Source: Gammaproteobacteria bacterium
GTDB taxonomy: Bacteria > Pseudomonadota > Gammaproteobacteria > UBA4575
DNA: 64,000 nt
Direction of reading: 5' to 3'
Assembly: GCA_965203725.1 (NCBI GenBank)
Contig: CBDBDH010000001.1
Coordinates: 644,686 to 708,685, forward strand
Each line of letters opens with the position of its first letter. Position 1 is the first letter of the stretch. The translations under genes and the position numbers were made by a program. Positions 8,532-62,986 of this stretch are shown piece by piece. The notes beneath the pieces are model-generated. The model did not search any database. It was given only the letters and a program-made list of their open reading frames with translations, and had not been told where the DNA came from.

Positions 8532-8673
8532 GCGAAGGTACACCAGAAATCCATGAAGAACAATCAATGTGAGCGATAAAGAAACTACAGCTCAAGCATT
8601 GGACGTGTTTGCTCATATCTCTTTGATTCAAAAAATTCTGCTAGCTAATTGCGAAGTTAAAACACGGGCTTGA

Positions 8674-12076: not shown

Positions 12077-12157
12077 GACTTCCCAAATGTGCAGCTTCCC
12101 CGCGAGGCTGCGCACTTGGGAGGCCACAGGGGCTGACCGCAACGAGAAGGAGACGAC

Positions 12158-13193: not shown

Positions 13194-13198
13194 GCGGA

Positions 13199-13255
13199 TG
13201 CGGATATGCCCCTTCTCACGAGGGGGCATTCCGGATCGGCATCGGCCTATCCATA
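13199..13255 (+). repeat. Leader hairpin, type I (degenerate copy)
   Basis: cggatatgcccc ttctcacga gggggcattccg upstream of the 13277 gene. Confidence 0.5.
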
Positions 13256-13276
13256 ACGAAGACAGGAGACAGAACC

Positions 13277-13702
13277 ATGACCTATGAATTCACACCCGAC
13301 CAGCTTGCATGGATTGAGGCGCTGGAGTCCGGCAAGTACAAGCAGGGCACCGGCGTCCTGAAACAAAACGATCAGGACGGCACAGCATGCTACTGCTGTC
13401 TCGGACTGGCCTGCGAAATACTCGACCCCGCCGGCTTCACCCCGCAAGCCCAGACCATCCCGCTCAAGGATGGCAGCAAACGCGACGCCTATCCCTATGT
13501 CGGGCTCGCCAGCTTCCTCGATGAAAGCATGGTGACACGCCTGCAACTGAACGGCACCGCCGGGGACTGCCTGGACACCGACGGCAAGCAGGTCGAGGGC
13601 CGCGACCTGGCCCACCTGAACGACAACGGCAGCAGCTTCGCTGAAATCGCGCAGCTGCTGCGCCAGCGCCCGGAACGCTACTTCGACAAGGTCGTCAGCT
13701 AG
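13277..13702 (+). CDS. Hypothetical protein (141 aa)
   Basis: Start context ACAGGAGACAGAACCATGACC preceded by imperfect leader hairpin. Confidence 0.55.
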   Translation: MTYEFTPDQLAWIEALESGKYKQGTGVLKQNDQDGTACYCCLGLACEILDPAGFTPQAQTIPLKDGSKRDAYPYVGLASFLDESMVTRLQLNGTAGDCLDTDGKQVEGRDLAHLNDNGSSFAEIAQLLRQRPERYFDKVVS

Positions 13703-13709
13703 AAGCTGT

Positions 13710-13762
13710 CCGGATATGCCTGTCGCAAGGCAGGCATATCCGGCTGGACTTCAGCCGATAAC
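13710..13762 (+). repeat. Leader element, type I: perfect palindrome CCGGATATGCCTG-N8-CAGGCATATCCGG plus GGCTG-gactt-CAGCC-GATAAC
   Basis: Read directly; identical copy at 14139-14191, near-identical at 14653-14709, related at 15966-16017. Confidence 0.8.
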
Positions 13763-13780
13763 AAGACAGGAGACACAACC

Positions 13781-14131
13781 ATGACCACTTACTACCCCCC
13801 TCAACCGAGCATCCAGCACTCCCCATGGGGACGGGTGCAGAACGAGATCACGCTGGCCGAAGGCATCACCTTCGTCGATACCGCAAGCCATGGCGGGATC
13901 AAGCTTTCCGCCGAGCGCGTCGCCCAGATGCCCCGAGGCGCACGCAAGACGTCTGGCTGGTACGAGGAAGACTGTGAGTCTCTCTGGCCCCTGAGCAAGT
14001 TCTGGGACGAGCTTGACCACGCCGCTCTGTTCGGGGCTGACGAGAAGGCCATCCAGAAGGCCCATGACTCGATTCAGGCAGGACTTGACCACTACGACAA
14101 CGACTTCTCGCGGGTACGAATGCACACCTAG
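13781..14131 (+). CDS. Hypothetical protein (116 aa)
   Basis: Preceded by type-I leader hairpin and ACAGGAGACACAACCATGACC. Confidence 0.55.
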   Translation: MTTYYPPQPSIQHSPWGRVQNEITLAEGITFVDTASHGGIKLSAERVAQMPRGARKTSGWYEEDCESLWPLSKFWDELDHAALFGADEKAIQKAHDSIQAGLDHYDNDFSRVRMHT

Positions 14132-14138
14132 AGACTAC

Positions 14139-14191
14139 CCGGATATGCCTGTCGCAAGGCAGGCATATCCGGCTGGACTTCAGCCGATAAC
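14139..14191 (+). repeat. Leader element, type I (identical copy)
   Basis: ccggatatgcctgtcgcaaggcaggcatatccggctggacttcagccgataac. Confidence 0.8.
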
Positions 14192-14211
14192 TACACAGGA
14201 GATAGAAAACC

Positions 14212-14646
14212 ATGACAGACGCAAGAGACATTACGGAGCGAGGACAAGCCATTGACTGGGTCGAGTCCACGCTGGAAAGCAATGCCCACTACGAACACGG
14301 CAGCGAGTACCTGGAGAACTTCATCAAGCAGGTCGTGACAGGCATCAAGGCGCCTATGCACGACACCAACACGTTGCAGGCGATCGTCGAGGCCCTGGAC
14401 GATCCGAAGGTCGAGGCCAGTGAAATCGTATCCGAGCACAGCTGGGTGTTGCTGGCCGAAGCCCTCGACAACTACTCGGTGGACCAGCTCATCAATGACG
14501 CGCTGGAGAAAGGCGTGGACGCCTACCGGGCGCACCATGTGTGCAGCGCCGACGTCAGTGAGCAGATGGGCACGGAGCTCATGGGGCACGGGCGCACGGA
14601 CCTGGTCGCCGGCCGCGAGGTCAACATGCCGCGGGAGGACGACTGA
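14212..14646 (+). CDS. Hypothetical acidic protein (144 aa)
   Basis: Preceded by type-I leader hairpin and ACAGGAGATAGAAAACCATGACA. Confidence 0.55.
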   Translation: MTDARDITERGQAIDWVESTLESNAHYEHGSEYLENFIKQVVTGIKAPMHDTNTLQAIVEALDDPKVEASEIVSEHSWVLLAEALDNYSVDQLINDALEKGVDAYRAHHVCSADVSEQMGTELMGHGRTDLVAGREVNMPREDD

Positions 14647-14652
14647 GGCTGT

Positions 14653-14709
14653 CCGGCGATGCCTGTGCTGCAAGGGGCAGGCATCCCCGGCTGGACTTCA
14701 GCCGATACC
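14653..14709 (+). repeat. Leader element, type I (variant copy)
   Basis: ccggcgatgcctgtgctgcaaggggcaggcatccccggctggacttcagccgatacc. Confidence 0.75.
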
Positions 14710-14728
14710 AAGACAAGGAGACACCCTT

Positions 14729-14980
14729 ATGAAAATGAAAACGACCAAGATCGCCGGCGGGTTCCAGACCGTCATTGAACCGGACCGGCCCGCAGCTGCG
14801 GACGGCCAGCGCTACACGCTGCTGTACGAGACTGACACCGGATGCGCCGAGGCCGATACGCAGGCCCGCGGCATCAGTGAGGCCATCCGCAACTTTCGCC
14901 GCGACGTGCCCGATGAGTACCACGGCGCAGACGCCTATATCACGGACGAGGACGGCTGCGAATACCCCATGGACTGGTAA
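14729..14980 (+). CDS. Hypothetical protein (83 aa)
   Basis: In frame within track ORF 14420-14980; preceded by type-I hairpin and AAGGAGACACCCTTATG. Confidence 0.5.
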   Translation: MKMKTTKIAGGFQTVIEPDRPAAADGQRYTLLYETDTGCAEADTQARGISEAIRNFRRDVPDEYHGADAYITDEDGCEYPMDW

Positions 14981-15004
14981 CCCTTAACGAGACAGGAGTA
15001 AGCC

Positions 15005-15436
15005 ATGAATAAAGAGAGACTGATGGAGCTGGCAGACCACATCGAGGCCGTGGGATACCAGCGGATCGTCAAGCGCAAGGGCACCAACCCTGAAGCGCAG
15101 TTCGACATGCGCCAATGGGTGCACGAGTGCGGCGCACCTGGCTGCATCGCGGGCCATGGCGTGAACCACTTCGAGCCCGACACCTATCAGGAGTGCCTGA
15201 AGCTGCAGGAAGGTCCGGACGAGGACGTGAATGCCATGCAGACGGCGATATCCAGGGAAGCCCAGAGGATCCTGGACCTGGACTACCTGACCGCATGCCG
15301 CCTGTTCAATCCGCATGCCATTGATAACGTGTACGACAGCGGACCCGATAAGGCGGCGGATGTGCTGCGCAAGCTGGCCGCCGGCCAGGGCGTCACCTGG
15401 TTTTCCCCCAGGGTGCGGGCGGAATTCGGAGTTTGA
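15005..15436 (+). CDS. Hypothetical protein (143 aa)
   Basis: RBS CAGGAGTAAGCCATG. Confidence 0.55.
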   Translation: MNKERLMELADHIEAVGYQRIVKRKGTNPEAQFDMRQWVHECGAPGCIAGHGVNHFEPDTYQECLKLQEGPDEDVNAMQTAISREAQRILDLDYLTACRLFNPHAIDNVYDSGPDKAADVLRKLAAGQGVTWFSPRVRAEFGV

Positions 15437-15438
15437 CC

Positions 15439-15750
15439 ATGGCCCGCCGGAAATACACGATCAAGTCCAGCCCGAACATCCGCATGTTCGAGGTGCAGAT
15501 GCGCGACCGCTCGGAGCGGTTCGTGCTGGCCCGCATCGGCCACGCTAAGGTGCGGATCTGCACGCTCGGCATGTGGACGAAGCTTTACCACGACCGGCGC
15601 TTCTTCGAGCGCGTGGTGGTGCGCGAGCTCGAGCTGGACGCCGACATGCGGGCGCGGGTGCGCAAGGCCATGAGCCCGCACATGCGCCGGCACAAACCCA
15701 CCAGATTCACGGACCAGGTCATTGCGACCGTACAGGAGAACGCCGCATGA
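15439..15750 (+). CDS. Hypothetical basic protein (103 aa)
   Basis: ATG 3 nt after previous stop; in frame with track ORF 15433-15750. Confidence 0.5.
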   Translation: MARRKYTIKSSPNIRMFEVQMRDRSERFVLARIGHAKVRICTLGMWTKLYHDRRFFERVVVRELELDADMRARVRKAMSPHMRRHKPTRFTDQVIATVQENAA

Positions 15751-15959
15751 ACGACATCGACGCACGGATCACGCTCAGCAGCTCGAAATGCCGCATCGAG
15801 CCGGTATCGGATACCGCCAGGGACTGGCTGGAACAGCACGTGTTCCGCATGACCACCGGCTACGAGTTCGGCCCCGTGCAGGGCAAGCGCGTACACGACG
15901 ACATGCTCAAAGTCGGCATGACCCTGCATATCGTGGAGGTGACCCACCACTTCGAGTGA
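15747..15959 (+). CDS. Hypothetical protein (70 aa)
   Basis: ATGA start/stop overlap with preceding gene; ACAGGAGAACGCCGCATGA; in frame with track ORF 15573-15959. Confidence 0.45.
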   Translation: MNDIDARITLSSSKCRIEPVSDTARDWLEQHVFRMTTGYEFGPVQGKRVHDDMLKVGMTLHIVEVTHHFE

Positions 15960-15965
15960 GGCGCA

Positions 15966-16017
15966 CCGGCATAGCCTGTGCAGGCTGCAGGCTATCCCGG
16001 CCAGCTTCGGCCGAAAC
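15966..16017 (+). repeat. Leader element, type I-related
   Basis: ccggcatagcctgtgcaggctgcaggctatcccggccagcttcggccgaaac. Confidence 0.6.
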
Positions 16018-16045
16018 TGAGAAACCCAAAATACAGGAGAAAACC

Positions 16046-16486
16046 ATGACCAATACATCCACCACCCACCCGCAGCTCGAATCCGACTTCGGGCCCGTCA
16101 TTCACACGTATACACGCGCACAGGCCATCGAGGACGGTGTGCTCATCGATGTGTCCAAAACCGCACGAGAGGCCGGATTTACCCTGCCTGTGGCCATAAC
16201 CGCGGCTGCCTATGCCGACACCGTGGAATGGACGAAAGCGGATAGTGAGCGGCAACGCGTCTACCAAGACCAGAGCGGGCGCCTTTGGGATGCCCTTTAC
16301 ATGGCGGTTTTTGCAATACGAGCGCGAAGCGCCAGACCAAACGATACCACGATGGAATACGAGTTTTACCGAGTGCCGTGTGGCGGCAGGGCCACCAAGC
16401 CGCGTCGAGTCACTCTCAAGCTGGTGATCGGTCCGGGCGATGATGCAGAGCCGGTCGTCACAATCATGATGCCGGACGAGGACTGA
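16046..16486 (+). CDS. Hypothetical protein (146 aa)
   Basis: Preceded by leader hairpin and ACAGGAGAAAACCATGACC; in frame with track ORF 15722-16486. Confidence 0.55.
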   Translation: MTNTSTTHPQLESDFGPVIHTYTRAQAIEDGVLIDVSKTAREAGFTLPVAITAAAYADTVEWTKADSERQRVYQDQSGRLWDALYMAVFAIRARSARPNDTTMEYEFYRVPCGGRATKPRRVTLKLVIGPGDDAEPVVTIMMPDED

Positions 16487-16499
16487 CCGGGGCAGCCAG

Positions 16500-16545
16500 G
16501 GGCACAGGGATCGTGCCCGCCGTCTGCGGGTGTGTTTGCCCGTAC
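16500..16545 (+). repeat. Leader element, type II: GGGCACAGGGATCGTGCCC hairpin (GGA in loop) plus CGGGTGTGTTTGCCCG
   Basis: Read directly; homologous copy at 17669-17716. Confidence 0.7.
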
Positions 16546-16593
16546 CGATGAAGGGGGAACCCAGAAACGGCAACCAAAGAAGGAGACCAAACC

Positions 16594-16965
16594 ATGACCA
16601 CAGAAGACAAGTATTTCGACCTGCAGACGACCGGCGTGGGCTACCTGCGCAAGGTGGACGACCACGAGCCGCCGACGATCACCATCGCCGCCCTTCGCGG
16701 CAGAACCGGAGATGTCCAGTACACACACTTCGAGTGCGGGGTCGTGGGCAGCAAGGCACAGGCCACCGTTAAGGAGCTCCGGGGAGCCGTTGACGACGGA
16801 CTGAGAGTCCTGATCGGCTTCACGCTCAGCGATCTGCATCTGGAGCTCAGCACCTATCAGGGCGGCGAGCGCGACGGCCAGACCAAGGCTCGGCTGAAAG
16901 GACGCTTGCTGCGAATTTCCTATACGAAGGTGGAAGGACAACCATTCATCCCGAACGCCGCATAA
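16594..16965 (+). CDS. DUF3577-like protein (family typical of ICE/genomic-island cargo)
   Basis: YFDLQTTGVGYLRKV...ITIAALRG...YTHFECGVVG...KARLKGRLL resembles the DUF3577 signature as I recall it (YF.LhtrGiGYlnR...aL.G...Y..FdcrV.G). Preceded by type-II GGA-loop hairpin and AAGGAGACCAAACCATGACC. Confidence 0.55.
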   Translation: MTTEDKYFDLQTTGVGYLRKVDDHEPPTITIAALRGRTGDVQYTHFECGVVGSKAQATVKELRGAVDDGLRVLIGFTLSDLHLELSTYQGGERDGQTKARLKGRLLRISYTKVEGQPFIPNAA

Positions 16966-17035
16966 AGCAGCAGGAAACGGCCCTCTGGGATTCCAGGGGG
17001 CCCGGCACCAATCACAACACAGGAGAACCAAAACC

Positions 17036-17398
17036 ATGAGAACGATGAGCACACGGCTCGACGACCACAAAACCAGTGGCATGGTAAACACCACGCCATC
17101 TGACTGGTACACGAGTCACCTGACACACCAGCCCACCATAACCACGCACCTGAGCGCGGACGAGAAGGGCGTGGCGTTCAAGACCCTGCGGAACAACGAC
17201 GTGATCGAGGATGGCTACATTGCACTCGATGAGGTGAGGACGGCCGGCAAGCGCCGCAACCTGATCCGCCGCATGACCCGCGAGAGCAACCAGTTGCTGA
17301 TCGACGGTCCGGAATCCGAGCTAAAGCTGTTGGGCATCATGCAATCGGCCAAGAGCTGCCAGATCGGACTGAAGCGCCAACATGTAGTAGTGGTATAG
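17036..17398 (+). CDS. Hypothetical protein (120 aa)
   Basis: Preceded by hairpin GGCCCTCTGGGATTCCAGGGGGCC and ACAGGAGAACCAAAACCATG. Confidence 0.5.
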   Translation: MRTMSTRLDDHKTSGMVNTTPSDWYTSHLTHQPTITTHLSADEKGVAFKTLRNNDVIEDGYIALDEVRTAGKRRNLIRRMTRESNQLLIDGPESELKLLGIMQSAKSCQIGLKRQHVVVV

Positions 17399-17480
17399 GC
17401 CCAACGGGCCGGGCATCGCCGAGCCCCAGCTCAAACAGATTGCCCGGCCCCGAAGGCCATCAAACCTAATGGAGGTAAAC

Positions 17481-17648
17481 ATGCCCGATGACATCTATAC
17501 CCGAAACGGCTACCGCGACCGCCGCGACTACCTAGGCACCCTGGCTGACCAGTATGGCGTAGACTTCCATACCGTGGCGGCCATGGCCGAGATCCTGGGC
17601 AAGGACGAGGACTTTGATGGCTTGGTCACAGAACTGGAGAACTTCTAG
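17481..17648 (+). CDS. Small hypothetical protein (55 aa)
   Basis: RBS AATGGAGGTAAACATG; acidic peptide MPDDIYTRNGYRDRRDYLGTLADQYGVDFHTVAAMAEILGKDEDFDGLVTELENF. Confidence 0.35.
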   Translation: MPDDIYTRNGYRDRRDYLGTLADQYGVDFHTVAAMAEILGKDEDFDGLVTELENF

Positions 17649-17668
17649 GGCAGTCTTTGAACGGGACA

Positions 17669-17716
17669 CGGGGCACAGGGAAGTGCCCCGGCTATCTACG
17701 GGTGTGTTACCCGTAC
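17669..17716 (+). repeat. Leader element, type II: GGGGCACAGGGAAGTGCCCC plus ACGGGTGTGTTACCCGT
   Basis: Loop CACAGGGAAGUG resembles the high-affinity CsrA site RUACARGGAUGU. Confidence 0.7.
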
Positions 17717-18161
17717 TGATATAGGTGAAAGCCAGAAACAGGTAACGTAACGGAAGCCAACCATGAATGTGAATGACGACTCCACCAGCATAGAGCGGGT
17801 GAAGCTCTGCAAGGCGGTGAATTTCGCCACAAAGGAGGCACTCCACGTTATCCTGAATGACGAGTGCCACAAACCTTGGAAGGTGCCAAAATGGCTAAAT
17901 CATGCACATTAGCTAAAAAACGGCTTACGAGGATGGCCTGTAAGCGACGATCTCGACCTTGGCCGTATCCTAGTACCCCTGAAATCCGCATGGTTTTTGT
18001 ACAATTGGATGAGCGCAGGAACAGGGAATCCGATGCACACAGCCCTAACGTTCGGGCCTTTTTCCGGCCCTCAGTGGATCCCCATGGAAGCCATGTGCAA
18101 TGCTGTAACGCCGCTCGGGGAGTATGATGAGATCACACCACGAGCTTTAGGAATCTTCAGT

Positions 18162-37933: not shown

Positions 37934-38149
37934 GGTTATCCTAGCCAATTCGCTGTGTATGGCACAAGGCATTCACGAGACCTCCCAAAAAGTGTCGTTA
38001 ATCTACATATCTCTGGATTCAAGCCACCTGAATGTGGCCTAACTAGAATCGACAGTGCAAAGTGAAGTCCGCTCACCATTGTATAGAGCCCAACCGAAAA
38101 CTCTGGCCAGACACTCTGTATCAAAACGGATACTTTAAAAATCTTGGGT

Positions 38150-38878
38150 TCAAGCTAAGGCCTCAAACTCCTTGTTCTTGCAAGGCAAAAAATTGGATGG
38201 CCACGGACTGACCAACTTACAAAGCAACTGGTATTGGACCGGTGCATATTTATTAACCTGCTCAACTGTTACTCTGACCTGATTTAAGTCTGTGGATTTG
38301 ATCAGCTGCGTGAATTCAGCAGAATAGTAGCGAGGGGCATAGCCAACAATGGTGATCGGATCGCCAGTACGCATCAGTAAAGCCATTTCATCTTGAGAGT
38401 TTTGCAAATCCTGCAACAAGTACAATCGTTCACCAACTTGCATTTGAAGTGCACGTTTCCTGTCTTCCTCATGTAGGTGCCGTAGTCCCCTACAAAAAAA
38501 GTGCACTTCGTAATTTTTCCATACTGTAGGTTCAGGACACGGAAACAGTTCCAGGGAATCCGTAGCACGCAATCCGCCTGTACGGGCAAGCTCTTCCAGC
38601 TCGTCATAGCGAGCCTCTGACAGCCCCAGCCAATAGAGATAATCCTTATATTCTGGACGATTCTTGGCCAAGATCCGACTAGTAAACATCGGAAAGAGTT
38701 CTTCGGATTCGTATACCTTGTACAAATCCTGCATACGCCCAAATCGGTGAGATTCAGGCATTTCCTCAGCACCTCGCGTGTAAACGAACTTGTAGAGATC
38801 GTCTTCCCTGGTAAGCCTTCCAACCGGTGCCCACTTCCTGGTCTTGGAATCCTGCCATGCGACAAATAGAGCTTTCAT
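38150..38878 (-). CDS. Protein with HipA N-terminal-subdomain-like (HipS-like) region; putative partner of the upstream kinase
   Basis: ALFVAWQDSKTRKWAPVGRLTREDDLYKFVYT...LFPMFTSRIL resembles the HipA N-terminus (LVTWMNNQRVGELT...FKY...FFDNLLPEG). Low GC; 25 nt downstream of the kinase gene. Confidence 0.45.
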   Translation of the reverse strand: MKALFVAWQDSKTRKWAPVGRLTREDDLYKFVYTRGAEEMPESHRFGRMQDLYKVYESEELFPMFTSRILAKNRPEYKDYLYWLGLSEARYDELEELARTGGLRATDSLELFPCPEPTVWKNYEVHFFCRGLRHLHEEDRKRALQMQVGERLYLLQDLQNSQDEMALLMRTGDPITIVGYAPRYYSAEFTQLIKSTDLNQVRVTVEQVNKYAPVQYQLLCKLVSPWPSNFLPCKNKEFEALA

Positions 38879-38902
38879 TGTGTCCGTCCTCTTTGCTAGA
38901 AA

Positions 38903-48330: not shown

Positions 48331-49629
48331 ATGAACGGCCTGTGTCGTGACTGCGGCGAGGTGTCGCTGGTCGAGGACGCCCGTGCGTGTCCTGCGTGCG
48401 GATCTGTGCGCCTGGTGCGCCATGCGGAACTGCATGAACTGGCCATCGCCCACCTCGACTGCGATGCTTTCTATGCCGCGATCGAAAAGCGTGACCATCC
48501 GCAGTGGCGCGACCAGCCGCTGATCGTCGGCGGCGCCCACCGCGGCGTGGTGGCGGCCTGCTGCTACCTGGCCCGCGCCCACGGCGTACGCTCGGCCATG
48601 CCCATGTTCCAGGCCCTGAAGGCCTGCCCGGACGCCATCGTGGTGCGCCCGGACATGAAACGCTACCGGCAGGTCAGCGAACAACTTCGCACCATGATGC
48701 TCGCGCTCACTCCCCTGGTGGAGCCCCTGTCGATCGATGAGGCCTACCTGGACTTGACCGGCACCACGGCCCTGCATGGCAAGAGCCCGGCAAAAAGTCT
48801 CACGGAACTGGTTCGCAAGGTGGAGAACGAACTGGAGATCACCGTGTCTATCGGCCTCAGCTACAACAAGTTCCTGGCCAAGATCGCCTCCGACCTGGAC
48901 AAGCCCCGCGGCTTCTCGATGATCGGGCGGGGCGAAGCGCAGGCCTTCCTCGCGGAGAAGCCGGTGGAGCTCTTGTGGGGCGTGGGCCGGGCCCTGCAGC
49001 AGCGGTTGGCGCACGACGGCATCACGCGGATCGGGCAGTTGGTCCCCCTGCAGGAGGCGGTGCTGGTGGCGCGCTACGGCAAGATCGGCCACTGGCTGTA
49101 CGGCTGCGCCCGCGGCCGGGATGCGCGCACCGTCAATCCCGAGCGCGAGGCGAAAAGCCTGTCCTCGGAGATCACGCTACAGCAGGATACCGCCGACCTC
49201 GAGACACTTCGCACTACCTTGTGGAAGCTCAGCGAGACCCTGTCGGGGCGCATGAAAAAGGCCGGCGTGATGGGCCGCGGCGTGATCCTGAAACTCAAGA
49301 CCGCGGACTTTCGCCTGTTGACCCGCTCCCGACGACTGGAAACCCCGAGCCACTCGCCCGAGTCCATGTTCCGCATCGCCGAGACCCTGCTCGAGCGCGA
49401 GGCCGACGGGCGCGCCTTTCGACTGATCGGCATCGGTGCCGCCCCGCTGATTGCGGCCGACCCGATGCACCAGGACGATCTTTTCGCGAAGGCCGAAGAG
49501 GGTGCGGGCGAGACCCCGGTCGACCAGGTCATGGATGCGATCGAGGAGAAGTTCGGCCCCCGGGCCGTGGTGCGCGGGCGCGGCTTCGGCGTGGAACTGA
49601 AACGCCAGGGGCCGAGCAAGGCCGAGTAG
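48331..49629 (+). CDS. dinB: DNA polymerase IV (Y-family) with N-terminal CxxC...CxxC zinc-ribbon extension
   Basis: LDCDAFYAAIE and SIDEAYLD catalytic blocks; N-terminal CRDCGEVSLVEDARACPACGS. Confidence 0.8.
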   Translation: MNGLCRDCGEVSLVEDARACPACGSVRLVRHAELHELAIAHLDCDAFYAAIEKRDHPQWRDQPLIVGGAHRGVVAACCYLARAHGVRSAMPMFQALKACPDAIVVRPDMKRYRQVSEQLRTMMLALTPLVEPLSIDEAYLDLTGTTALHGKSPAKSLTELVRKVENELEITVSIGLSYNKFLAKIASDLDKPRGFSMIGRGEAQAFLAEKPVELLWGVGRALQQRLAHDGITRIGQLVPLQEAVLVARYGKIGHWLYGCARGRDARTVNPEREAKSLSSEITLQQDTADLETLRTTLWKLSETLSGRMKKAGVMGRGVILKLKTADFRLLTRSRRLETPSHSPESMFRIAETLLEREADGRAFRLIGIGAAPLIAADPMHQDDLFAKAEEGAGETPVDQVMDAIEEKFGPRAVVRGRGFGVELKRQGPSKAE

Positions 49630-50647: not shown

Positions 50648-50717
50648 CCTTTGGAGCACGGCTTTATCGAGGCTGACCGATCCTGAAGCTGTACGGGGAT
50701 CACGCAGAGCCTGCAAA

Positions 50718-50900
50718 ATGGTTTTATTGAGAATCAGGTATATCCACCAGCAGTTCTCCATCCAGAAAGTCGCCCACTACATCGGCATGAGCGTCAGCAC
50801 ACTGCAGCGCATCTTCAAGGGCTGTTCGGGTACCGCCAATTTCTCCATGGCGTTTCAGTGTGAATTCGGGTATCCGTCCTCTGCCTGTATGCGTAACTGA
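50718..50900 (+). pseudogene. Remnant of an AraC-family regulator gene (one HTH only)
   Basis: IQKVAHYIGMSVSTLQRIFKGCSGT... matches the first AraC-type HTH; too short for a complete domain. Lies at the GC-rich/AT-rich junction. Confidence 0.45.
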
Positions 50901-51335
50901 TCCGTCCCCGAAATTACATATGCATTCCTCATCAACCTTTAAGAAATTTTTTGCTAGAGCTGACGGCTTTGCAATCAGGCTGCTTACAGCTCGTACTTCA
51001 GTACACTATTGCTAACAGATCGTCTTCTATAATTTAAGTTGGCCAACGCAAGGTCTATAGAACACCTCTCCTGAAATTCTAAGTTTACAGTTAAAAGTGT
51101 TGTGTATAGGCCTTTCAGATACTCTCACCCTATCCCACCAACGCACCCAATTGAATGAAAGTACCGCCTGGAGTTCTGATAATTTTTGATAACCCATAGT
51201 AGATAGTGTAAGTTCACATCTTGCCTAGTAAGAGGAAGTCTCAGCTAAGCAATATTAGTTGTTCTCAAGCGCCGAGTCTGGACGGTGCGGGCACCACGAA
51301 GCTAGTGGCTAGCAGGGTCAGATAAAATAACAATA

Positions 51336-52637
51336 ATGAATCAGCAGTCCAGCACAGCGCAGCAATCAATCAGCCATTCGGATTTGAAGCAGTGGGCACA
51401 ACAAGATGCCCAAAACGATAACGCCAAAGGCAATAATTGTCATCAATCTTTCGAAGGGCGAATCCAACTAATTATGCAGCATTACACTGCTGATATTACG
51501 AAAAATTTTATCGGTGAATTCCAATCCCGGATAAAGGATATTCAAGATGACTTCTCGAAAATCGTAGGCCGCCTAGTAGACAATCCGGCACCCTACATCA
51601 AAGAGATTGAAACTCAAGTCAATGCAGCAATCGCCACAGCTGAAAAGCAATTTGCGCCCAAGATTAAGAATTTGCAAATGGAGCTTGCTGAATGGGAAGC
51701 TCGGTTCAAATCAGGCCTACACAACGGTATCTCAAACCCAAAAAATCAAAATCCTGTTTGGCACTGGGGTTTGATTCTTTTTCTTTTCGCTATAGAAGTC
51801 ATTCTCAACTCAAGGTTTTTTGCTGAAACAAGTGAATATGGATTATTGGGAGGGACTATGGCCGCAATCACCGTCTCGGTTGTGAATGTAGGCGTCCCAA
51901 TATTGTTAGGCTTCTTTGCACACAAACTGTATTACAGCAAAGGTGCTTTGCCGAATGCAGCTGGCATTGTAGTAATACTCTTGCTAGTAATTGTTGCAAG
52001 TGTTTTTAACTACCAAGTCGCCGAGTTTAGAGATCACATGCTGGGGGCTGCAGGTCATCCTCCTTCCCCATTTCCCGAATATTTTGCTTTGTTGACCATT
52101 GGGGGAGCAATCGCGATCATATCGTTTTGGAAAATGTTTAGTTACATGGACCCTTACGACAGACCGAGACGCTGTCATGAAAATAATGAACGAGCAATAA
52201 ATGACTATGAAAATACAGCACTGAAGCCAATCAGAGAGGCACAGAATGCTGTGAATGAGATTTTGAAAGAAATTCAAATTCAGTTGAATAAAACACAGGG
52301 TGTTATCGAAAGAGAAATAGCAGATTTTGACTATCGATGCACTGAAGCCATCAAAGATTCCAACAAAAGTGTCGATACCTATCACCACATTTATTGTCCC
52401 GTAAAAGCTGATCCAGATCCTCCAAAACCAGATTTCTCAGAGGAAGATTTTGATTTTTCGTCAGCCCAAAAATTTGTATCTAAAATAATAGGAAATTTGG
52501 AAGACAGTTGTCGTAAGGCAAAGGAAAATTGGCTGCCCCTCCACCAGAAGGTTAGACAAGACTTAGTGGATACTCACCAAAAATTTCAGGCAGTAGTTGT
52601 CGCGAATATTCAGGCAGCCATATCGCAGGCTAGCTAG
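51336..52637 (+). CDS. Hypothetical membrane protein (433 aa; N-terminal coiled-coil region, about four central TM helices, C-terminal cytoplasmic domain)
   Basis: About 40 % GC; TM segments WHWGLILFLFAIEVILNSRFF, AITVSVVNVGVPILLGFFAHKLYY, AAGIVVILLLVIVASVFNY, YFALLTIGGAIAIISFWKMF. Confidence 0.6.
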   Translation: MNQQSSTAQQSISHSDLKQWAQQDAQNDNAKGNNCHQSFEGRIQLIMQHYTADITKNFIGEFQSRIKDIQDDFSKIVGRLVDNPAPYIKEIETQVNAAIATAEKQFAPKIKNLQMELAEWEARFKSGLHNGISNPKNQNPVWHWGLILFLFAIEVILNSRFFAETSEYGLLGGTMAAITVSVVNVGVPILLGFFAHKLYYSKGALPNAAGIVVILLLVIVASVFNYQVAEFRDHMLGAAGHPPSPFPEYFALLTIGGAIAIISFWKMFSYMDPYDRPRRCHENNERAINDYENTALKPIREAQNAVNEILKEIQIQLNKTQGVIEREIADFDYRCTEAIKDSNKSVDTYHHIYCPVKADPDPPKPDFSEEDFDFSSAQKFVSKIIGNLEDSCRKAKENWLPLHQKVRQDLVDTHQKFQAVVVANIQAAISQAS

Positions 52638-52713
52638 CCGTTTCTGAAAACGTCATATACTGAAGTACCCCTCGACTGTATTCGACTTGTCAGATCGATA
52701 GTAAGGCATTTAC

Positions 52714-53532
52714 ATGAATGAAATGACCAAGACCTTGGCTGGAGTTGTGCTAGGTGCGATTGGTTTGACCGTAGTGGCTGGCTTCTTGTTTTATTCTGAG
52801 AAGGTTAAGGTAGAGCGCTCGCTTGTGAATCCGGTCTCACATTGCCCTGTTACGGAGTCAAAAACTGTTTGGAGCTTCTATAAGGTTCATCCACCCAGTA
52901 TCTTGAAGCGAACAGCCGTTCTGATTGATGCCACTGACCACATACCTGAGTCACACAGACACCAACTTGCTTCTTGGTTTGAGGAAGACTTCACGAATAC
53001 ACTTGTCCAATTTGAGCAGGTGGCAATTTACGAAGTAAGGCCTCAAAAAAATTCTGCGAACCCAGTGCTTGATGAACCCCACTTCAATCAATGCTCACCG
53101 CCAAGTGTGGCAAATAAATGGATAGAAAACCCAAGACTGGTGCGTATGAAATTCAAAGAGGAGTTTATGGAGAGAAAGCTGTCAGTTATTAGAGCACTTG
53201 CTTCTCAGGACGAAGCCAGATGGTCTCCTATCATGGAAATTGTAGAAATTTTGTTCAACGATTTTGACAGAATAGTCCTTGTTTCAGATCTGATGCAACA
53301 TACAACTAGTTGCTCTCTTTATAAGAGGAGAGATAGCAAAGGGAGTAAGAAGTTGGGCTGTCTAACAGATTCTCTGATGCCCCTAGACACTAAAAGTCTT
53401 GATGTAATCTTTCTCAAACGAAATAAGATAACCGCATTACAAGACAGCTCTCTGTTGAATTTTTGGCAAGAACACATCGAAGCGAGGCAGGGAACATTTT
53501 TAGTAAAAGCGCAATTGTCATCTATTGATTAG
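52714..53532 (+). CDS. Hypothetical N-terminally membrane-anchored protein (272 aa)
   Basis: TM TLAGVVLGAIGLTVVAGFLFY; low GC; 76 nt after the previous gene. Confidence 0.55.
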   Translation: MNEMTKTLAGVVLGAIGLTVVAGFLFYSEKVKVERSLVNPVSHCPVTESKTVWSFYKVHPPSILKRTAVLIDATDHIPESHRHQLASWFEEDFTNTLVQFEQVAIYEVRPQKNSANPVLDEPHFNQCSPPSVANKWIENPRLVRMKFKEEFMERKLSVIRALASQDEARWSPIMEIVEILFNDFDRIVLVSDLMQHTTSCSLYKRRDSKGSKKLGCLTDSLMPLDTKSLDVIFLKRNKITALQDSSLLNFWQEHIEARQGTFLVKAQLSSID

Positions 53533-53672
53533 ACTGATTCGTCGGGCACACACTTCACAGAACTTGAACTGGATTTTAGAGAAAGAATGTCTTTCTCCAT
53601 TACCTGACAATTTCTAGATTGAAGTTGACAAAATAGGACGTTAGTAGATTGCAGTCACTATGAGTGTGAAAG

Positions 53673-54182
53673 TCAATTTAGATAAACCCTTTTCCCATGC
53701 TTCCAATATTTAGGGTTGTAACTAATCTGGTTGCTCCATATTCCAAGTTTTTCTTCCTTAGCACAACGCTCTTGGCTTTTATATTGGTCGCTATACGCAG
53801 CTATGGCCAAGCCGTTTCTCACCATCCATTCACAAACATCCTTGCCGTCACAAAATACAATGCCCAAGGCACGATCAAATTTGTCGTAGCCTCGAATATC
53901 TACCTTTACGAATCGCCCACCAATCGCCTGTATTAATTCCCCTTTCGCCCACTTTCCCTGGTTGTACCATCGTCCATTCTTTTGGGCGAGTTGCCTATGT
54001 TCCGGTGCGTCCAACCCATACAAACGAATTTTGATTCCTTTCACTACAATATCGTCAGCATCAACTACAAAAGCCTTACCAGAAATAGTTTCCTCTTGTC
54101 TTGGGCTAAGTCTTGCCCAGACAAGTGGTAGTAACAAAGCCAAACAAATAATTAAAACTATGATTTCTATCACTGCTTCCAT
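53673..54182 (-). CDS. Membrane-anchored thermonuclease (staphylococcal-nuclease/SNase-like) protein
   Basis: N-terminal TM IEIIVLIICLALLLPLVWA; SNase signature FVVDADDIVVKGIKIRLYGLDAPEH. Confidence 0.65.
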   Translation of the reverse strand: MEAVIEIIVLIICLALLLPLVWARLSPRQEETISGKAFVVDADDIVVKGIKIRLYGLDAPEHRQLAQKNGRWYNQGKWAKGELIQAIGGRFVKVDIRGYDKFDRALGIVFCDGKDVCEWMVRNGLAIAAYSDQYKSQERCAKEEKLGIWSNQISYNPKYWKHGKRVYLN

Positions 54183-54704
54183 CTATTTTTGTCGTTTTAC
54201 ATTATCAAGGAGTAATACACAGTCTCGGTGGCAATCCGGATGACTATCCTCATAATCCATAAACTGTAGCAACTCCATGCTCTAGTGATGCTATTAAGCC
54301 AAGACGTCCTATAGCCTGACCGTCAAATATACTTGAAATGTCAGCTTTGCTATCACATTCAAATGTAATTTAGCCTTTATCAGATAGGCGGGCTATGTGT
54401 GGGGCTACGAAAAGACCATTGGTTCCATCCAATTGCTCCACAGAAGTCTCACATACTCACCATGGATTTATATGGCAACCAATTAAATGGCGAGAATTGC
54501 TAAAACCCGTAGCACGACAACGGGGTTCTATCCGTCCTATTTTGCGGTGAACTACTCTTTCCCTCTTTCTAGCCTTTAATGACAAATTTCTATTCTATTT
54601 ACTCAGGTGTAGCTTCAACTCCTATGTTTGAGTTTCTCCAATTAGACTTGCTTTTTTCTCTCATAATTTCTCTTTACTGTTCTCATCTCCGTAGCAAAAT
54701 GGAT

Positions 54705-56309
54705 TCATATAGCAGAATGAGTTTGTGCAGTCACGTGAGTGGCGAACCCTGAACCTGCCTCTGCATAGACGTTGAATACCGTCGATGCCCCGGCCTCTTT
54801 GAGCGGCTCGATCTCATCTGCAAACCGGGCAGTGGCCGCGACTTGACCCTTGAACTCGGCGTTCTTGAGCTCATCAAGCACGGCTAGGTTGGAAGTCAGG
54901 TTTGGCAGTGCCAACATTACTAGTTCAAGTGTGTGAGTGGCCTGCACACGATCCCAGAAGTCCGCATCGCTTGGGTCACCCAACAACACCGTGCGCCCGG
55001 TAGACTGCAGACGCTCGACCTTGACGGGGTTGGTATCCACGCCGACGACTGCCCCGCCGTGGCGCTTATGCATGTCATCATAGGCCCCGGTACCGACACG
55101 CCCCATGCCGATGATGGCGATCTTCGCACCACCAATATCGAGTGCATGGTCATCGGACAGTCGTTCCGGGCGCTGCAGGCGTTTCAGGAGTGCACCATGG
55201 CGGGTGTAGAGCGGGTGGGCCATGACATTGAGACCCGCGGCGATTGCGCATGACAGTGCCAATGCAATTGCGATGACGATCAGCCAGCTGCTGTCAATCC
55301 AGCCGTTTGCCGCACCGACTGCTGCGACGATTAGTCCGAACTCACTGAAGTTGGTCAAGTTCAGCGAGGCAAACAGCGAGGTCCGTGCGCGCAGCTTGTA
55401 GCCTGTCATCAGCACATAGAAAAGTGCCGTCTTGAGAAGCACGAACGGCGTGATTGCCACCCCGATGAGTACCGTCTGCAGTGTCAGCGGCCCGGACAGC
55501 CCGATGGACAGGAAGAAGCCGACCAGGAACAGGTTCTTGAAGCTGAGCATGGCCTTCGACATCTCAACGCCCTTGCTGTGGCTTGCGATCAACACGCCCA
55601 TGACCAGCGCACCCACGTAGCCCTTGAGCCCGATCAGCTCGAACAGTTGCGCCCCGCCCACGGCCAGCAAGAAACCGTACAGGACCAGAAGTTCCCCGTG
55701 CCCCACGCGGTCCAGGATGGCAGACAGTACTGGACGCAGGCCAATCAGCAGCACCAGGAGAATGGCCCACCCTGCCGGCCAATGGCCAGCCGATGCAGCA
55801 AGGAAGATGACGGCGGCCAGGTCCTGCACGAGGAGAATGCCGATGGCGATGCGCCCATGCAGGGAGGCCGTCTCCTCGCTGTCCTCCAGCGCCTTCACGG
55901 CGAACACGGTGCTCGAGAAGCTCAGGGCAAAGGCGATCAAAAGGGAGGTGGTGAAATCAAGATCTTCAAAGAGTGCCGCCCCTGCCAGCGCCAGCGCATA
56001 GATGAGCACCCCGAAAACCACCACGGTAATCGACATGTGCAGTCCCGTGACGGCCCACACCTGCGGGCGCGCGAAGGTGCGAAGGTTGAGCTTGAGGCCG
56101 ACGACGAACAGCAACAGGATGATGCCGAGTTCCGATAGTGCCTCGAGCATGGCGCCGCTGGTGACCCCGAACACGTTGAGCACGAAACCCGCAGCAAGGA
56201 AGCCGACCAGCGGCGGCAGGCCTGCGCTCCTCGACAAGAGACCGAACGCGAACGCAAGGCCGATCCAGGTGGCATCCCCCAGGGCGGTGGCGATGATGTC
56301 AAAACCCAT
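54705..56309 (-). CDS. Monovalent cation:proton antiporter-2 (CPA2, KefB/KefC-like) with C-terminal RCK/TrkA-N domain
   Basis: 12-13 TM Na_H exchanger core plus IAIIGMGRVGTG Rossmann. Confidence 0.8.
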   Translation of the reverse strand: MGFDIIATALGDATWIGLAFAFGLLSRSAGLPPLVGFLAAGFVLNVFGVTSGAMLEALSELGIILLLFVVGLKLNLRTFARPQVWAVTGLHMSITVVVFGVLIYALALAGAALFEDLDFTTSLLIAFALSFSSTVFAVKALEDSEETASLHGRIAIGILLVQDLAAVIFLAASAGHWPAGWAILLVLLIGLRPVLSAILDRVGHGELLVLYGFLLAVGGAQLFELIGLKGYVGALVMGVLIASHSKGVEMSKAMLSFKNLFLVGFFLSIGLSGPLTLQTVLIGVAITPFVLLKTALFYVLMTGYKLRARTSLFASLNLTNFSEFGLIVAAVGAANGWIDSSWLIVIAIALALSCAIAAGLNVMAHPLYTRHGALLKRLQRPERLSDDHALDIGGAKIAIIGMGRVGTGAYDDMHKRHGGAVVGVDTNPVKVERLQSTGRTVLLGDPSDADFWDRVQATHTLELVMLALPNLTSNLAVLDELKNAEFKGQVAATARFADEIEPLKEAGASTVFNVYAEAGSGFATHVTAQTHSAI

Positions 56310-59616: not shown

Positions 59617-59961
59617 ACACGCAGGCCAGTCGCTACCTGTTAGCAAGGGAACTATGTGGGAGCAGTGAGGTTGCGCAATGCAACCTCACTCTCCCATGCG
59701 CCTTAGGCACGAACCAGAAATGCCCAGCTCTTATAACCATAATCATGGGCATCCAGATACCTGTTTGAGTTTTTTACCCTACGATATCGGGTATAGACCC
59801 AACGATAGCCTTTTGGTGCACTTTTTGAAGTGCGCATACACATACACCTCCTTTCCCAGAGGAGATTTTCTTTGCAATTAGTACGCACACATGCTAGATT
59901 TAGCATTGGAAATTGATAATAATTACAACGCGCTGCCCTCTGGGGAACAGCACATAATTTT

Positions 59962-59994
59962 AAAAGCGAACTGTAGAGAGTTCGTTTTTTTTTG
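59962..59994. terminator. Bidirectional Rho-independent terminator
   Basis: GCGAACT-gtagag-AGTTCGT followed by T9 on + strand; on the - strand the hairpin is followed by UUUUAAAAUU, directly after the immA stop. Confidence 0.55.
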
Positions 59995-59998
59995 CCAC

Positions 59999-60532
59999 TT
60001 AAATAATTTTTGCTTTCTTAAACTCTCCCCATTGTTTGGCAGCAGCTTCGTACGAAACACCAAATTTGCTGACGATATCCTCAGCACACTCACAGTCGCC
60101 AACATGATCAACAGAGACTAAAAGCTCTCCTCCAAAGCAGTTGGCTTGCCACTCACTACTTCTGAATGGAGGAATCTCTTCTCGAGAAATCCTGCGAGTA
60201 AGCGACAAATTCGAGTGAATAAAAAGATGTCCCAGTTCATGCGCTATTGTCATCCTGTCCCTCCCCCTACCCTCACACGCGCCATCATATACGTCGCGTC
60301 TTAACATTATTATGTTCTGATCAGGCATTGTCCTTCCATGGTCGGCACCCATCACAGCTTTCTCTTCAATTACAAGTGAGAAGGAATCATCCATGCTAGG
60401 CAATGCCAAATCAACAATGTCGACTACTGGGAAATATGCTTCATCCCAATGAAAAGCTTTTCGTACCTCTCTTGCGAAGTCACGAATATCGGCTCTGGAA
60501 AGAGGTGGCACCTCAATAGTCACATGGCTCAT
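59999..60532 (-). CDS. ImmA/IrrE-family (COG2856) zinc metallopeptidase
   Basis: HEXXH motif MTIAHELGHLFIH; about 40 % GC; 5 nt after the XRE gene. Confidence 0.7.
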   Translation of the reverse strand: MSHVTIEVPPLSRADIRDFAREVRKAFHWDEAYFPVVDIVDLALPSMDDSFSLVIEEKAVMGADHGRTMPDQNIIMLRRDVYDGACEGRGRDRMTIAHELGHLFIHSNLSLTRRISREEIPPFRSSEWQANCFGGELLVSVDHVGDCECAEDIVSKFGVSYEAAAKQWGEFKKAKII

Positions 60533-60537
60533 AGCTG

Positions 60538-60900
60538 TTACTCACGACAGTGTTTCTTCAAGATAGTCATCATTTTATCGATGTCCTCCTGTGAAAGTTC
60601 ATCAAATCTCCTTGCAAAAGTGGTCGCTAATTCTCGTTGGCCTTTATTAGTGTTATTTAATGATAGTTTTAGATTTTTCCTTGTGTCAGCAGCTAATGAT
60701 TCCAGCTTTTCTTGTTGTTCCTCACCAAGCTCAAAGTATTTTGCAATATTTACAACCAGCTTAGGTGGCACGGCCTTTTTCCCGGTTTCTAATCCTGATA
60801 CATATGCCGATGTGACTTTTAATTTTTCTGCCATGTCTTTCAGTCGAACACCTTTCTCGATTCTGAGCATACGTACAGCTTTACCAAATGGTGTTAACAT
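60538..60900 (-). CDS. XRE-family HTH transcriptional regulator (ImmR-like)
   Basis: HTH LKDMAEKLKVTSAYVSGLETGKK; paired with the ImmA-like gene. Confidence 0.65.
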   Translation of the reverse strand: MLTPFGKAVRMLRIEKGVRLKDMAEKLKVTSAYVSGLETGKKAVPPKLVVNIAKYFELGEEQQEKLESLAADTRKNLKLSLNNTNKGQRELATTFARRFDELSQEDIDKMMTILKKHCRE

Positions 60901-61448
60901 GTTTTATCCTCTGTTGATGTTTAAGTTGGCGATAAATCTCTCCCATAAAATTAGACAATCTTCAACCTACTAAGTTCAGTTAATTTCTATGAAATATCAT
61001 AAAATTTAACTTACTGGTTTAAATAGTAACCAATACTTCACCTTGTGTCAACTACCTGTTTGATTTGCTGTTTGATTTGTTTGATTTGGATGCACTGGAA
61101 ACTTGATGGCCCTTTGTCTGGTTTTGGAGACCGAAACACTCAGTACCATATGCATCTAGTGCAAATTATCAGGTAACCAGTATTAATCTTGCTGAGTAGC
61201 AAACTTCAGATGCTATAAAAGCCATCCAACAACAATTATTTCTTTCCGAAGCTCAGGAGTGGAGATAACTATACAATTCAAGATCTCATGCACCGACGCT
61301 TGTGGAGACACTCGTATGGCTATGTGCAGGGAAGGCACCGTGTTCACCTTGGATACAGACTTGTGGGTGTTCGCTTTAATACGACCTGAATGGGGCAAGC
61401 GCAAGTAACAGGAGTTTGTGCGCTCATTTTTCGAAACAACAATGCGAC

Positions 61449-62732
61449 TTAGCCTCTTTTTTTGACCCGCTTCGCGCTCGGCACGATCGTCTGGCGGTGC
61501 CCGCAGGGCTTCCAGGCCGGTGCGATCACGTTCGGCATGTCCGAGCGGTGCAGCAGGCTCGCGTGCATCACGGTGAATTCCCCGTAGCGGTCATTGACCG
61601 CGTCCATGGCCCGGTTCAGCCGGTCAAAGCGGCTCTCCTCCCCTGCGAACAGCTCCCGCTGTCCCCGGACCGGGCGCGGGTCCAGGGCCGTGACTTGCAC
61701 CTGGAACACCCCTTCTCCGCGCCAGTGCTCGCAGAGCATGCGTCGGCACAGCCCGATGATCGCCCGGCTGTCGTTGGTCGGGGTGTCCGTCCTGAAACGG
61801 TGGCTGCCGAGCCAGCCTTCCCGGGTGCGAAGGCCGATCAGGTAGCGCTGGGCGACCAGCGCGTGCTGGCGCATCCGCGCGCCCAGCTTCTCGGCCATGT
61901 GCACCAGGTACATGAGGATGATGTCGCGCCCGGTGGTGTCCGGGGGCATGATCTTGCCGTGCCCCAGGCTCTTGGGGGCGCCGACCCGGGTTTCCACCGG
62001 GGCCGGGTCCTCGCCGCGGCACATCTTCCAGATGCGCCGGCCCTGGTTGCCGAAGCGCTGCCCGAGCACGCTGATGGGCAAGCCTGCGACCTCCCCGCAG
62101 GTGAGGGCCCCGTGGCGGGCCAGGAACCCGGCGATGCCCCGGTTGACCCCGCACAGCTCGGTGACGGGCACATCCTTCAGCCGCTCGCGGGCCTCCCAGG
62201 GGGCGATGACGGCCAGACCATTCGGTTTTTTCCGCTTGGCGGCGTACTTGGCGGTGGTCTTGTCGCCGCTGATGCCGACGGTGCAGCCGAGCCCCGAGAC
62301 CTCGGCGACCTGCGCCTTGATCATCGCCCCGATGGCCTCGGGGGGCCGGTTCCAGTAGCCCTGGCAGTGGGTGAGGTCGAGGAACGCCTCATCGACGGAG
62401 AATACCTCCACGTCCGGGGTGATGTTTTGCAGGGCGGCCATGATGTCGGTGGAAACCTTGGCATAGCGCTCGGGGTGGGCCGGGACTTGGAGGATCTCCG
62501 GGCACACCTTCCGGGCCGCCCTCAGGCGCGTGCCGATGCCGATGCCGCAGGCCCTCGCCTCGTAGGAGCAGGTGATGAGGCAGGTGCCGGTCAGGCCGTT
62601 GGTGATGCCGATGGGGCGGCCCCGGTATTCGGGGTAGTCGCGCTGCTCGATGGAGGCGAAAAAGGCATCCATGTCGACGAAGGCGATCAGGCGGGGCCAG
62701 GGCTGGGGGTTGTCCGGCATAGGATCCTTCAT
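61449..62732 (-). CDS. Second Y-family DNA polymerase (DinB/DinP-like)
   Basis: LIAFVDMDAFFASIEQRDYPEYRGRPIGI and SVDEAFLD blocks; start placed at MKDPMPDN (track ORF starts further upstream). Confidence 0.7.
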   Translation of the reverse strand: MKDPMPDNPQPWPRLIAFVDMDAFFASIEQRDYPEYRGRPIGITNGLTGTCLITCSYEARACGIGIGTRLRAARKVCPEILQVPAHPERYAKVSTDIMAALQNITPDVEVFSVDEAFLDLTHCQGYWNRPPEAIGAMIKAQVAEVSGLGCTVGISGDKTTAKYAAKRKKPNGLAVIAPWEARERLKDVPVTELCGVNRGIAGFLARHGALTCGEVAGLPISVLGQRFGNQGRRIWKMCRGEDPAPVETRVGAPKSLGHGKIMPPDTTGRDIILMYLVHMAEKLGARMRQHALVAQRYLIGLRTREGWLGSHRFRTDTPTNDSRAIIGLCRRMLCEHWRGEGVFQVQVTALDPRPVRGQRELFAGEESRFDRLNRAMDAVNDRYGEFTVMHASLLHRSDMPNVIAPAWKPCGHRQTIVPSAKRVKKRG

Positions 62733-62986
62733 GCCGGGACCCCGGGCCGGGATCAAGCATAAAGCGAACCCTTGATTGCTTTGGTTTTGCTGCCCGGCGT
62801 ACAAGGCCTTTCTTAAGCGGTGCCTGTCCGGTAATGTGCACGCTGAAGGCAAGGTGCAGGAAGGATTCGATTTTGACTGCAGGGACTGCAACCAAATCCC
62901 CAGGGTCCTGTCTAAGAATCTGTTGGCCATCGAAGCACAGCCGTGCAGGCATGCCCAACGCACACCCATCAACAAGGAGATCAGAC

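Follow-up and report, generated by a model that had tools for sequence, protein, structure and literature searches.

A horizontally acquired membrane-protein pair with a tethered nuclease as a candidate envelope defence system

What kind of system is encoded by the AT-rich islet that interrupts a 64,000-nucleotide stretch of DNA from a Gammaproteobacteria bacterium (GenBank assembly GCA_965203725.1, contig CBDBDH010000001.1, positions 644,686 to 708,685; hereafter, the window)? An earlier, sequence-only reading of the window had singled out three genes in this islet, for proteins of 433, 272, and 169 residues, which we call proteins A, B, and N, and had proposed that they form a defence-like system of membrane sensors and a nuclease. 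The coordinates and strands of the three open reading frames (ORFs) were correct (Table 1). We find that the islet is foreign and horizontally acquired, that A and B are an obligate pair from a large, hitherto undescribed superfamily, in whose operons they are usually joined by a motor pair resembling ZorA and ZorB and often by a staphylococcal nuclease (SNase), and that the window carries a minimal version without the motor. As to its function, we propose an envelope-embedded defence against incoming DNA, in which B would sense, A would relay, and the tethered SNase would cut, a reading to which we assign a probability of roughly 0.45.

The drop in GC content reported between 50.7 and 54.7 kb is real: In a composition profile, the islet has a GC fraction of 0.38 to 0.46 at ~50.75 to 54.75 kb, versus 0.58 to 0.68 on either side. 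On one side it is bordered by a gene for a small membrane protein, on the other by the 3′ end of a Kef-type antiporter gene. Via close relatives of this antiporter we reached a related 1.97-Mb contig (L012), whose DNA is 88 to 94% identical to the window on both sides of the islet (BLASTN). The homology ends at position 50697 and restarts at 54722, and this break in synteny thus delimits the foreign segment. At the same site, L012 holds a different cargo of 6.2 kb (L012 positions 11589 to 17808) that is unrelated to the islet and comprises four unknown ORFs (411, 121, 232, and 200 residues), an IS1595 transposase, a Mom-like gene, and a PvuII-type endonuclease. Hence, the islet occupies a variable hotspot, and its foreign origin by horizontal acquisition is established.

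Protein A contains the four central transmembrane (TM) helices that had been described for it. Its hydrophobic helices span residues 139 to 164, 169 to 198, 201 to 231, and 246 to 269, flanked by long helices at both termini, and an AlphaFold model (predicted local distance difference test, 82.9) shows N-terminal helices on the cytoplasmic side, then the four TM helices, and lastly a long helical hairpin at the C terminus. Invariant columns among the homologues define a conserved core of E154, N158, FFA, G169-LL-GG173, N184, R232, G256, and D272. A loop predicted to lie on the periplasmic side, E164-T-S-E167, is likewise invariant. The claim that no nameable family is matched stood for this protein: Pfam, NCBIfam, PADLOC, and PHROGs yielded no family beyond coiled-coil noise, profile searches found no relative in the PDB, and a Foldseek comparison of the model with the PDB gave nothing significant. 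Among motor proteins, we obtained no Pfam match to MotA/ExbB/TolQ (PF01618), no MotA, ExbB, TolQ, or ZorA in the PDB profile searches, only a coiled-coil match to the PADLOC ZorA2 model (2e-4), and an hhalign probability of 25% over 11 columns against the ZorA-like family described below; the resemblance of the GLLGG motif to MotA/ExbB/TolQ is only a lead. The subfamily of protein A is very sparsely represented, with 24 homologues among 5.8 billion proteins, one locus only among 185,579 GTDB species genomes, and none found in IMG/VR and the JGI metagenomes; looking up the exact sequence of A retrieved no contig record.

For protein B, which is N-terminally anchored as had been read from its sequence, a family of folds can be named: A single N-terminal TM helix precedes a von Willebrand factor type A (vWA) fold with a Rossmann-like alpha/beta architecture. 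It has a site resembling a metal ion–dependent adhesion site (MIDAS), with D72-A-T74-D75 after strand beta-1, then S171/E175, and D192 after strand beta-4. Residues D72, T74, D75, S171, E175, and D192 are invariant, while the second serine of the DxSxS motif varies. By sequence, no Pfam VWA family was matched at E ≤ 1, a PDB sequence profile search came back empty, and no family was found in Pfam, NCBIfam, or PADLOC; the homologues of protein B number 30 (the search for protein A covered 5.8 billion proteins). Cys44 and Cys127 are invariant, a second cysteine pair co-occurs in 16 of 27 members, distant members carry N-terminal tails with 6 to 12 Lys/Arg ahead of the TM helix, and the protein B of one related locus (L133, see below) has a lipobox, LLAS/C, with Asp at +2. 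Based on the basic tails, the invariant cysteine pair, and the lipobox, the vWA domain is predicted to face the periplasm. Across 27 aligned members, the TM helix has no conserved His or Asp and no SHLS/His motif.

The two genes are inseparable wherever they can be followed. Among loci that extend far enough downstream, gene B comes after gene A in 59 of 59, and the window subfamily shows this order without exception. In 62 of 69 pairs, the two genes are no more than 10 nucleotides apart, although any overlap may be overstated because the starts were taken from the longest ORFs. A and B are thereby established as an obligate pair. The retrievable subfamily loci (L001, L004, L005, L006, L007, and L009/L010), whose relationships were confirmed by BLASTP, all read A then B, and in seven of seven distinct subfamily loci measured, the GC content of the A-B module lay 11 to 24 points under that of the host DNA. 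Their surroundings include a mobile element with a serine recombinase, a Mu-like transposase, and a ParB-methyltransferase (L004), an element bearing a relaxase (L007), and a prophage-like block (L005). In an Alphaproteobacteria metagenome-assembled genome (OZ242200.1; L009/L010), A-B adjoins a gene for a 579-residue AAA_15/AAA_21 ATPase located ~1 kb upstream (2834 to 4573) that matches the PADLOC models NsnB, AriA, and GajA (5e-24), and MazE-like and PIN genes follow downstream of A-B; this arrangement is possibly a small defence island. The neighbours of A-B in L001 and in L006, the latter being the most distant member of the window subfamily, are housekeeping genes.

Beyond the subfamily, the pair is widespread. 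A profile built from the A subfamily and run against 1.84 billion representative proteins gave 1414 matching clusters (50% identity) with an E-value cut-off of 1e-3, and 554 when the cut-off was lowered to 1e-10. Members of this broad superfamily are mostly 460 to 490 residues long, and none of 42 sampled ones matched a Pfam, PADLOC, or NCBIfam family. Upon scanning a metagenome collection with a degenerate DNA pattern back-translated from the motif DDPYPGYG, we obtained 120 loci, and the loci of carriers range in GC content from 27 to 75%. Where the loci were long enough to show them, A and B were followed by a third gene, Z, in 24 of 33 cases and by Z plus a fourth, Y, in 15 of 21. Protein Z combines a MotA/ExbB-like G.AL.TT..GL motif with a long coiled-coil tail and matches PADLOC ZorA models at ~1e-5; protein Y carries an invariant Glu in its TM helix and ends in an OmpA-like domain (ZorB1, 2.5e-7; Pfam OmpA, 2e-5). 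MotB and ZorB have Asp where protein Y has Glu. One IMG/VR contig (L134, IMGVR_UViG_3300035703_002996), the only one there with the DDPYPGYG DNA pattern, carries a complete A-B-ZorA-like-ZorB-like operon, with E-values from our hidden Markov models (HMMs) of 1e-95, 2e-49, 1.5e-99, and 1e-72 for A, B, Z, and Y. When the Z and Y HMMs were applied to the islet, including its noncoding parts, no Z or Y gene or remnant was found, the sole match being a coiled-coil one to protein A (1.2e-4). We regard both the superfamily and the place of the window in it as a version without the motor as established. Other arrangements also occur: In a variant seen in L055, L106, L112, and L123, A-B (with a B of ~300 to 311 residues) is followed, in place of the ZorAB-like pair, by genes for an intramembrane protease of the PrsW family, a Sel1-repeat protein, and a ~195-residue protein, and L037 has genes for a DUF3857/transglutaminase-like protein and an SNase after A-B.

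That protein N is an SNase-fold nuclease, as first proposed, was borne out by a match to Pfam SNase (PF00565; E = 6.9e-15, 55.9 bits against a cut-off of 21) that covers profile positions 1 to 107 of 107, and by matches to PDB chains of the Staphylococcus aureus nuclease (E = 1e-8). Residues R53, D58, E61, and R104 align with R35, D40, E43, and R87 of the S. aureus enzyme, and D41 and D43 are present as well (calcium-binding D19/D21 in S. aureus). In PADLOC, protein N matches the SNc model C3a212 only. Its N terminus reads MEAVIE, then a hydrophobic helix, then RLSPR, and its close homologues likewise show an acidic tip, a TM helix, and a K/R-rich linker, e.g., RPKPKQKK or RGRRKKR; a classical cleavable Sec signal peptide was not found in protein N. 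By the positive-inside rule, this acidic tip, TM helix, and basic linker would orient the SNase domain toward the cytoplasm, and we therefore predict protein N to be membrane-tethered with its catalytic domain on the cytoplasmic side. The SNases of the window and of L133 make up one topology group of this kind. Another, with a predicted periplasmic location, is seen in L027, L053, L080, and L092, whose SNases place a Pro-rich linker and a Cys-rich domain after an Arg-rich N-terminal tail and a TM helix.

The association of the nuclease with A-B recurs at loci other than the window. The closest relatives of protein N are 58 to 77% identical to it, and the one that could be placed (P0227; 70% identical, same length) is encoded at positions 150 to 659 of L133, just upstream of an A-B-Z-Y operon (481, 273, 439, and 287 residues) and separated from its A gene by one ORF. 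The four operon genes were confirmed by HMMs (2e-82, 2e-27, 6e-46, and 9e-33), and the A and B proteins of L133 are only 22 to 23% identical to those of the window. Close nucleases are thus linked to deeply diverged A-B systems. The intervening ORF of L133 (869 to 1366) encodes a 165-residue TM-anchored protein with no PHROGs match. In L006, an SNase-Excalibur protein is encoded after A and B on the same strand, with no BLASTP similarity detectable to protein N. Moreover, jackhmmer searches placed SNase genes directly upstream of A or downstream of Y in at least 10 metagenome loci, and an SNase was present in four of the nine broad-family loci in which both flanks were visible. The link between nuclease and A-B is no coincidence, although the nuclease is facultative.

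How might such a system work? In the sequence of events that we consider, B, anchored in the inner membrane, would use its periplasmic MIDAS-like site to detect a ligand or else a disturbance that the machinery of invading DNA (a phage tail or ejection proteins, for example, or a conjugation apparatus) inflicts on the envelope. From there, the signal would cross the membrane through the strongly conserved, periplasm-proximal TM core of A to its cytoplasmic bundle, after which the membrane-tethered SNase may cut incoming DNA at the inner membrane face, in the way that Zorya recruits a nuclease locally (PMC11946911; model summarized in PMC12422006). We infer the trigger, the coupling of A to the nuclease, and the defence phenotype. 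Two sets of observations argue for this defence reading. The first concerns context: the GC drop, the break in synteny, the restriction enzyme in the cargo of the relative, and the neighbouring mobile elements, prophage, and ATPase at related loci. The second concerns the genes themselves: the strict A-B pairing, the ZorAB-like partners in relatives, the recurrent SNase linkage, the vWA fold and predicted periplasmic location of B, and the intact catalytic residues and basic linker of protein N. A bolder version, in which A-B would be the sensor core of an unrecognized widespread envelope immune family, with B as a vWA/MIDAS receptor of phage or plasmid entry, A as a new four-TM transducer, exchangeable outputs (membrane-tethered or periplasmic SNases, PrsW proteases, or motors of the Zorya kind), and the window as the smallest self-sufficient version, appears doubtful to us.

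Several findings weigh against the defence reading. The gene of protein N is convergent to A and B, 140 nucleotides after B, and is not co-transcribed with them, and a nuclease is present in two of ~7 loci of the window subfamily, i.e., absent from most. In several other operons, a periplasmic SNase is predicted, from a signal peptide or from a Cys-rich domain after an anchor whose N terminus is inside, and this difference in compartment between system versions weakens the case for a single mechanism. A search of PADLOC-DB v2.0.0 produced no convincing match to a catalogued defence system for any of the three proteins. The likeness of Z and Y to ZorA and ZorB is sub-threshold, and both are absent from the window. 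The system was seen on one IMG/VR contig only. Lastly, the neighbourhood is not clearly that of a defence island: Around the broad family lies a mixture of PrsW, kinase, FHA, and metabolic genes, an integrase or HsdM turns up only now and then, and defence genes do not predominate. Of the defence-like sensor and nuclease system originally proposed, the acquired islet, the strict pair, and the recurrent nuclease link thus stand, while the nuclease proved facultative and the flanks unsupportive, and defence itself is inferred.

The rival that survives best, which we nevertheless consider unlikely, casts A-B as a general, nonimmune module for envelope sensing and signalling. Here, the periplasmic vWA domain would monitor the cell wall or the outer membrane, A would relay to a ZorAB-like motor, PrsW, kinases, or FHA proteins, and the nuclease would be an accessory for periplasmic or extracellular DNA turnover. 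The PrsW, kinase, and FHA partners favour such a module, as does the proposal that inner-membrane-tethered vWA proteins act as force transducers coupled to TolQ-like motors (Mol Biol Evol 2025, PMC12204202). However, the subfamily is extremely rare, low in GC, and located on mobile elements or in a hotspot that also houses a restriction enzyme, which would be unusual for housekeeping sensors; the distribution is patchy, over hosts with GC fractions of 0.27 to 0.75; and B lacks the SHLS/His motif and the TM aspartate of the published vWA transducers.

We regard as distinctly improbable an abortive infection in which A would itself be the effector, a helical pore or ion leak opened by triggered B, with the nuclease dispensable or a mere enhancer. 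The weakest alternative, that three unrelated passengers of a decaying islet happen to lie together and the nuclease is a generic thermonuclease beside A-B, would agree with the opposite strand and 140-nucleotide spacing of the nuclease gene, with its absence from five of ~7 subfamily loci, with the lack of BLASTP similarity to the L006 nuclease, and with the fact that SNase genes are common on mobile elements, but it is very improbable given the 70%-identical homologue beside an operon whose A and B are only 22 to 23% identical, the four of nine broad-family operons (those with both flanks visible) adjoined by an SNase (far more than expected by chance if a genome holds, at a rough estimate, about one SNase gene), and the intact state of all three ORFs with their conserved motifs.

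The features of the islet are collected in Table 1.

Table 1. Features of the acquired islet, in positions of the window.
Feature	Position	Strand	Evidence or remark
Foreign AT-rich islet	50698..54721		GC drop and synteny break versus L012
Left copy of 15-nucleotide imperfect direct repeat, GCAAAATGGTTTTAT	50713..50727	+	Repeat family D5
Short helix-turn-helix (HTH) fragment, possibly AraC-like	50718..50900	+	Sub-threshold HTH matches only
Protein A, 433 residues	51336..52637	+	AlphaFold model, homologue alignment
Protein B, 272 residues, N-terminal TM anchor and vWA fold	52714..53532	+	
Protein N, 169 residues, SNase-fold nuclease	53673..54182	-	Pfam SNase, PDB match
Right copy of direct repeat, GCAAAATGGATTCAT	54694..54708	+	Overlaps stop codon of Kef-type gene

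The two repeat copies near the breakpoints are identical at 13 of 15 positions, a score that was reached by 5 of 2000 shuffles of both breakpoint windows, and they are a candidate for an att-like site or a target duplication. No integrase, tRNA, or Rfam element was found in the islet, nor a tRNA or Rfam element beside it; promoter and terminator scans of the islet returned no more than chance level, and a DNA search of the islet against plasmids gave no match. The HTH fragment had been read as the remnant of an AraC gene truncated by the insertion, a claim that did not hold. Since the fragment belongs to the variable segment rather than to the conserved flank, this insertion did not create it by cutting a resident gene. 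Its AraC identity is not established either: The matches to HTH_AraC (E = 0.17, 12.5 bits; cut-off 26.6) and HTH_18 (E = 0.13, 13 bits; cut-off 33.6) fall below their thresholds, as do those to NCBIfam FtrA (E = 0.11) and to the best-scoring model, the generic HTH_3 (E = 1.2e-3), and a tblastn search against plasmids gave nothing.

Variable DNA is also seen elsewhere in the window. A second AT-rich islet at 59700 to 61440 (GC ~0.41) contains, both on the minus strand, an XRE-type HTH gene (60538 to 60900) and a gene for an ImmA/IrrE-like HExxH metalloprotease (59999 to 60532), a regulator-protease pair typical of mobile elements; L012 holds a Fic gene in its place. Three more segments of low GC (2000 to 4000, 8000 to 12000, and 38000 to 40000; 0.42 to 0.52 versus ~0.62 to 0.70 for the genome) suggest further acquired islets within the 64 kb. 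Two genes for Y-family (IMS/DinB-like) polymerases (48331 to 49629, plus strand; 61449 to 62975, minus strand) each adjoin a variable islet, the first of them being preceded by a HigA-like HTH gene (47965 to 48252). Between its MscS and Kef genes, L012 has a PIN/FitA toxin-antitoxin pair, which the window does not have.

If the defence reading is true, the islet would represent a new modular family of membrane-embedded immune systems, one that links Zorya-like motors to a periplasmic vWA receptor and that could offer a handle on how phage or plasmid entry is sensed from the periplasmic side. A and B are covered by none of Pfam, NCBIfam, PADLOC-DB v2.0.0, and PHROGs v4. The A profile has matches in at least 1414 clusters (50% identity). 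The three-gene form of the window, at ~3 kb, is small enough for direct cloning and could show whether a sensor pair and a nuclease work without a motor. Even if nonimmune, A-B would constitute a large uncharacterized class of envelope signalling modules.

How, finally, does the islet compare with known systems? Kiwa, a two-gene cassette of the four-TM protein KwaA and KwaB, shares with A-B its two-gene layout and a small polytopic membrane protein, but neither protein matches the PADLOC models of KwaA or KwaB, and B is a predicted periplasmic vWA protein rather than a cytoplasmic DUF4868 protein. Protein N has its domain, its fold, and its four catalytic residues (Arg, Asp, Glu, and Arg) in common with the SNase thermonucleases (PF00565) and differs from them in its lack of a classical Sec signal peptide, in its predicted cytoplasm-facing, membrane-tethered topology and in the linkage of its gene to operons of the A-B type. 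The vWA force transducers with TolQ-like motors (PMC12204202) resemble protein B in being single-TM periplasmic vWA proteins encoded beside a polytopic membrane protein, and full A-B operons also hold a pair resembling a 5:2 motor; yet those transducers are defined by an SHLS/His motif or a proton-binding TM aspartate (PMC12204202), and protein B, having neither, does not belong to a published transducer class.

Zorya comes closest. Like it, the A-B systems are embedded in the envelope, comprise several genes, and have a nuclease partner, and most A-B relatives continue with a ZorA-like and then a ZorB-like protein. Unlike Zorya, the window has no ZorA or ZorB equivalent or remnant, neither A nor B matches any of ZorC to ZorG, and no PADLOC match to the Zorya effectors (ZorC/D, ZorE, and ZorF/G) was obtained for A, B, or N; in the relatives, Y has its Glu at the TM position and the ZorA/B-like matches are sub-threshold, and Zorya has no vWA component. 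Having no ZorAB and no known effectors, the system of the window is not Zorya. In the literature, of which our coverage is incomplete, we found no description of a Zorya type IV or of an operon of the vWA-MotAB-SNase or A-B-ZorAB-like-SNase kind. Overall, the islet system is related by gene context to Zorya-like motors, and it has a fair chance of representing a new class.

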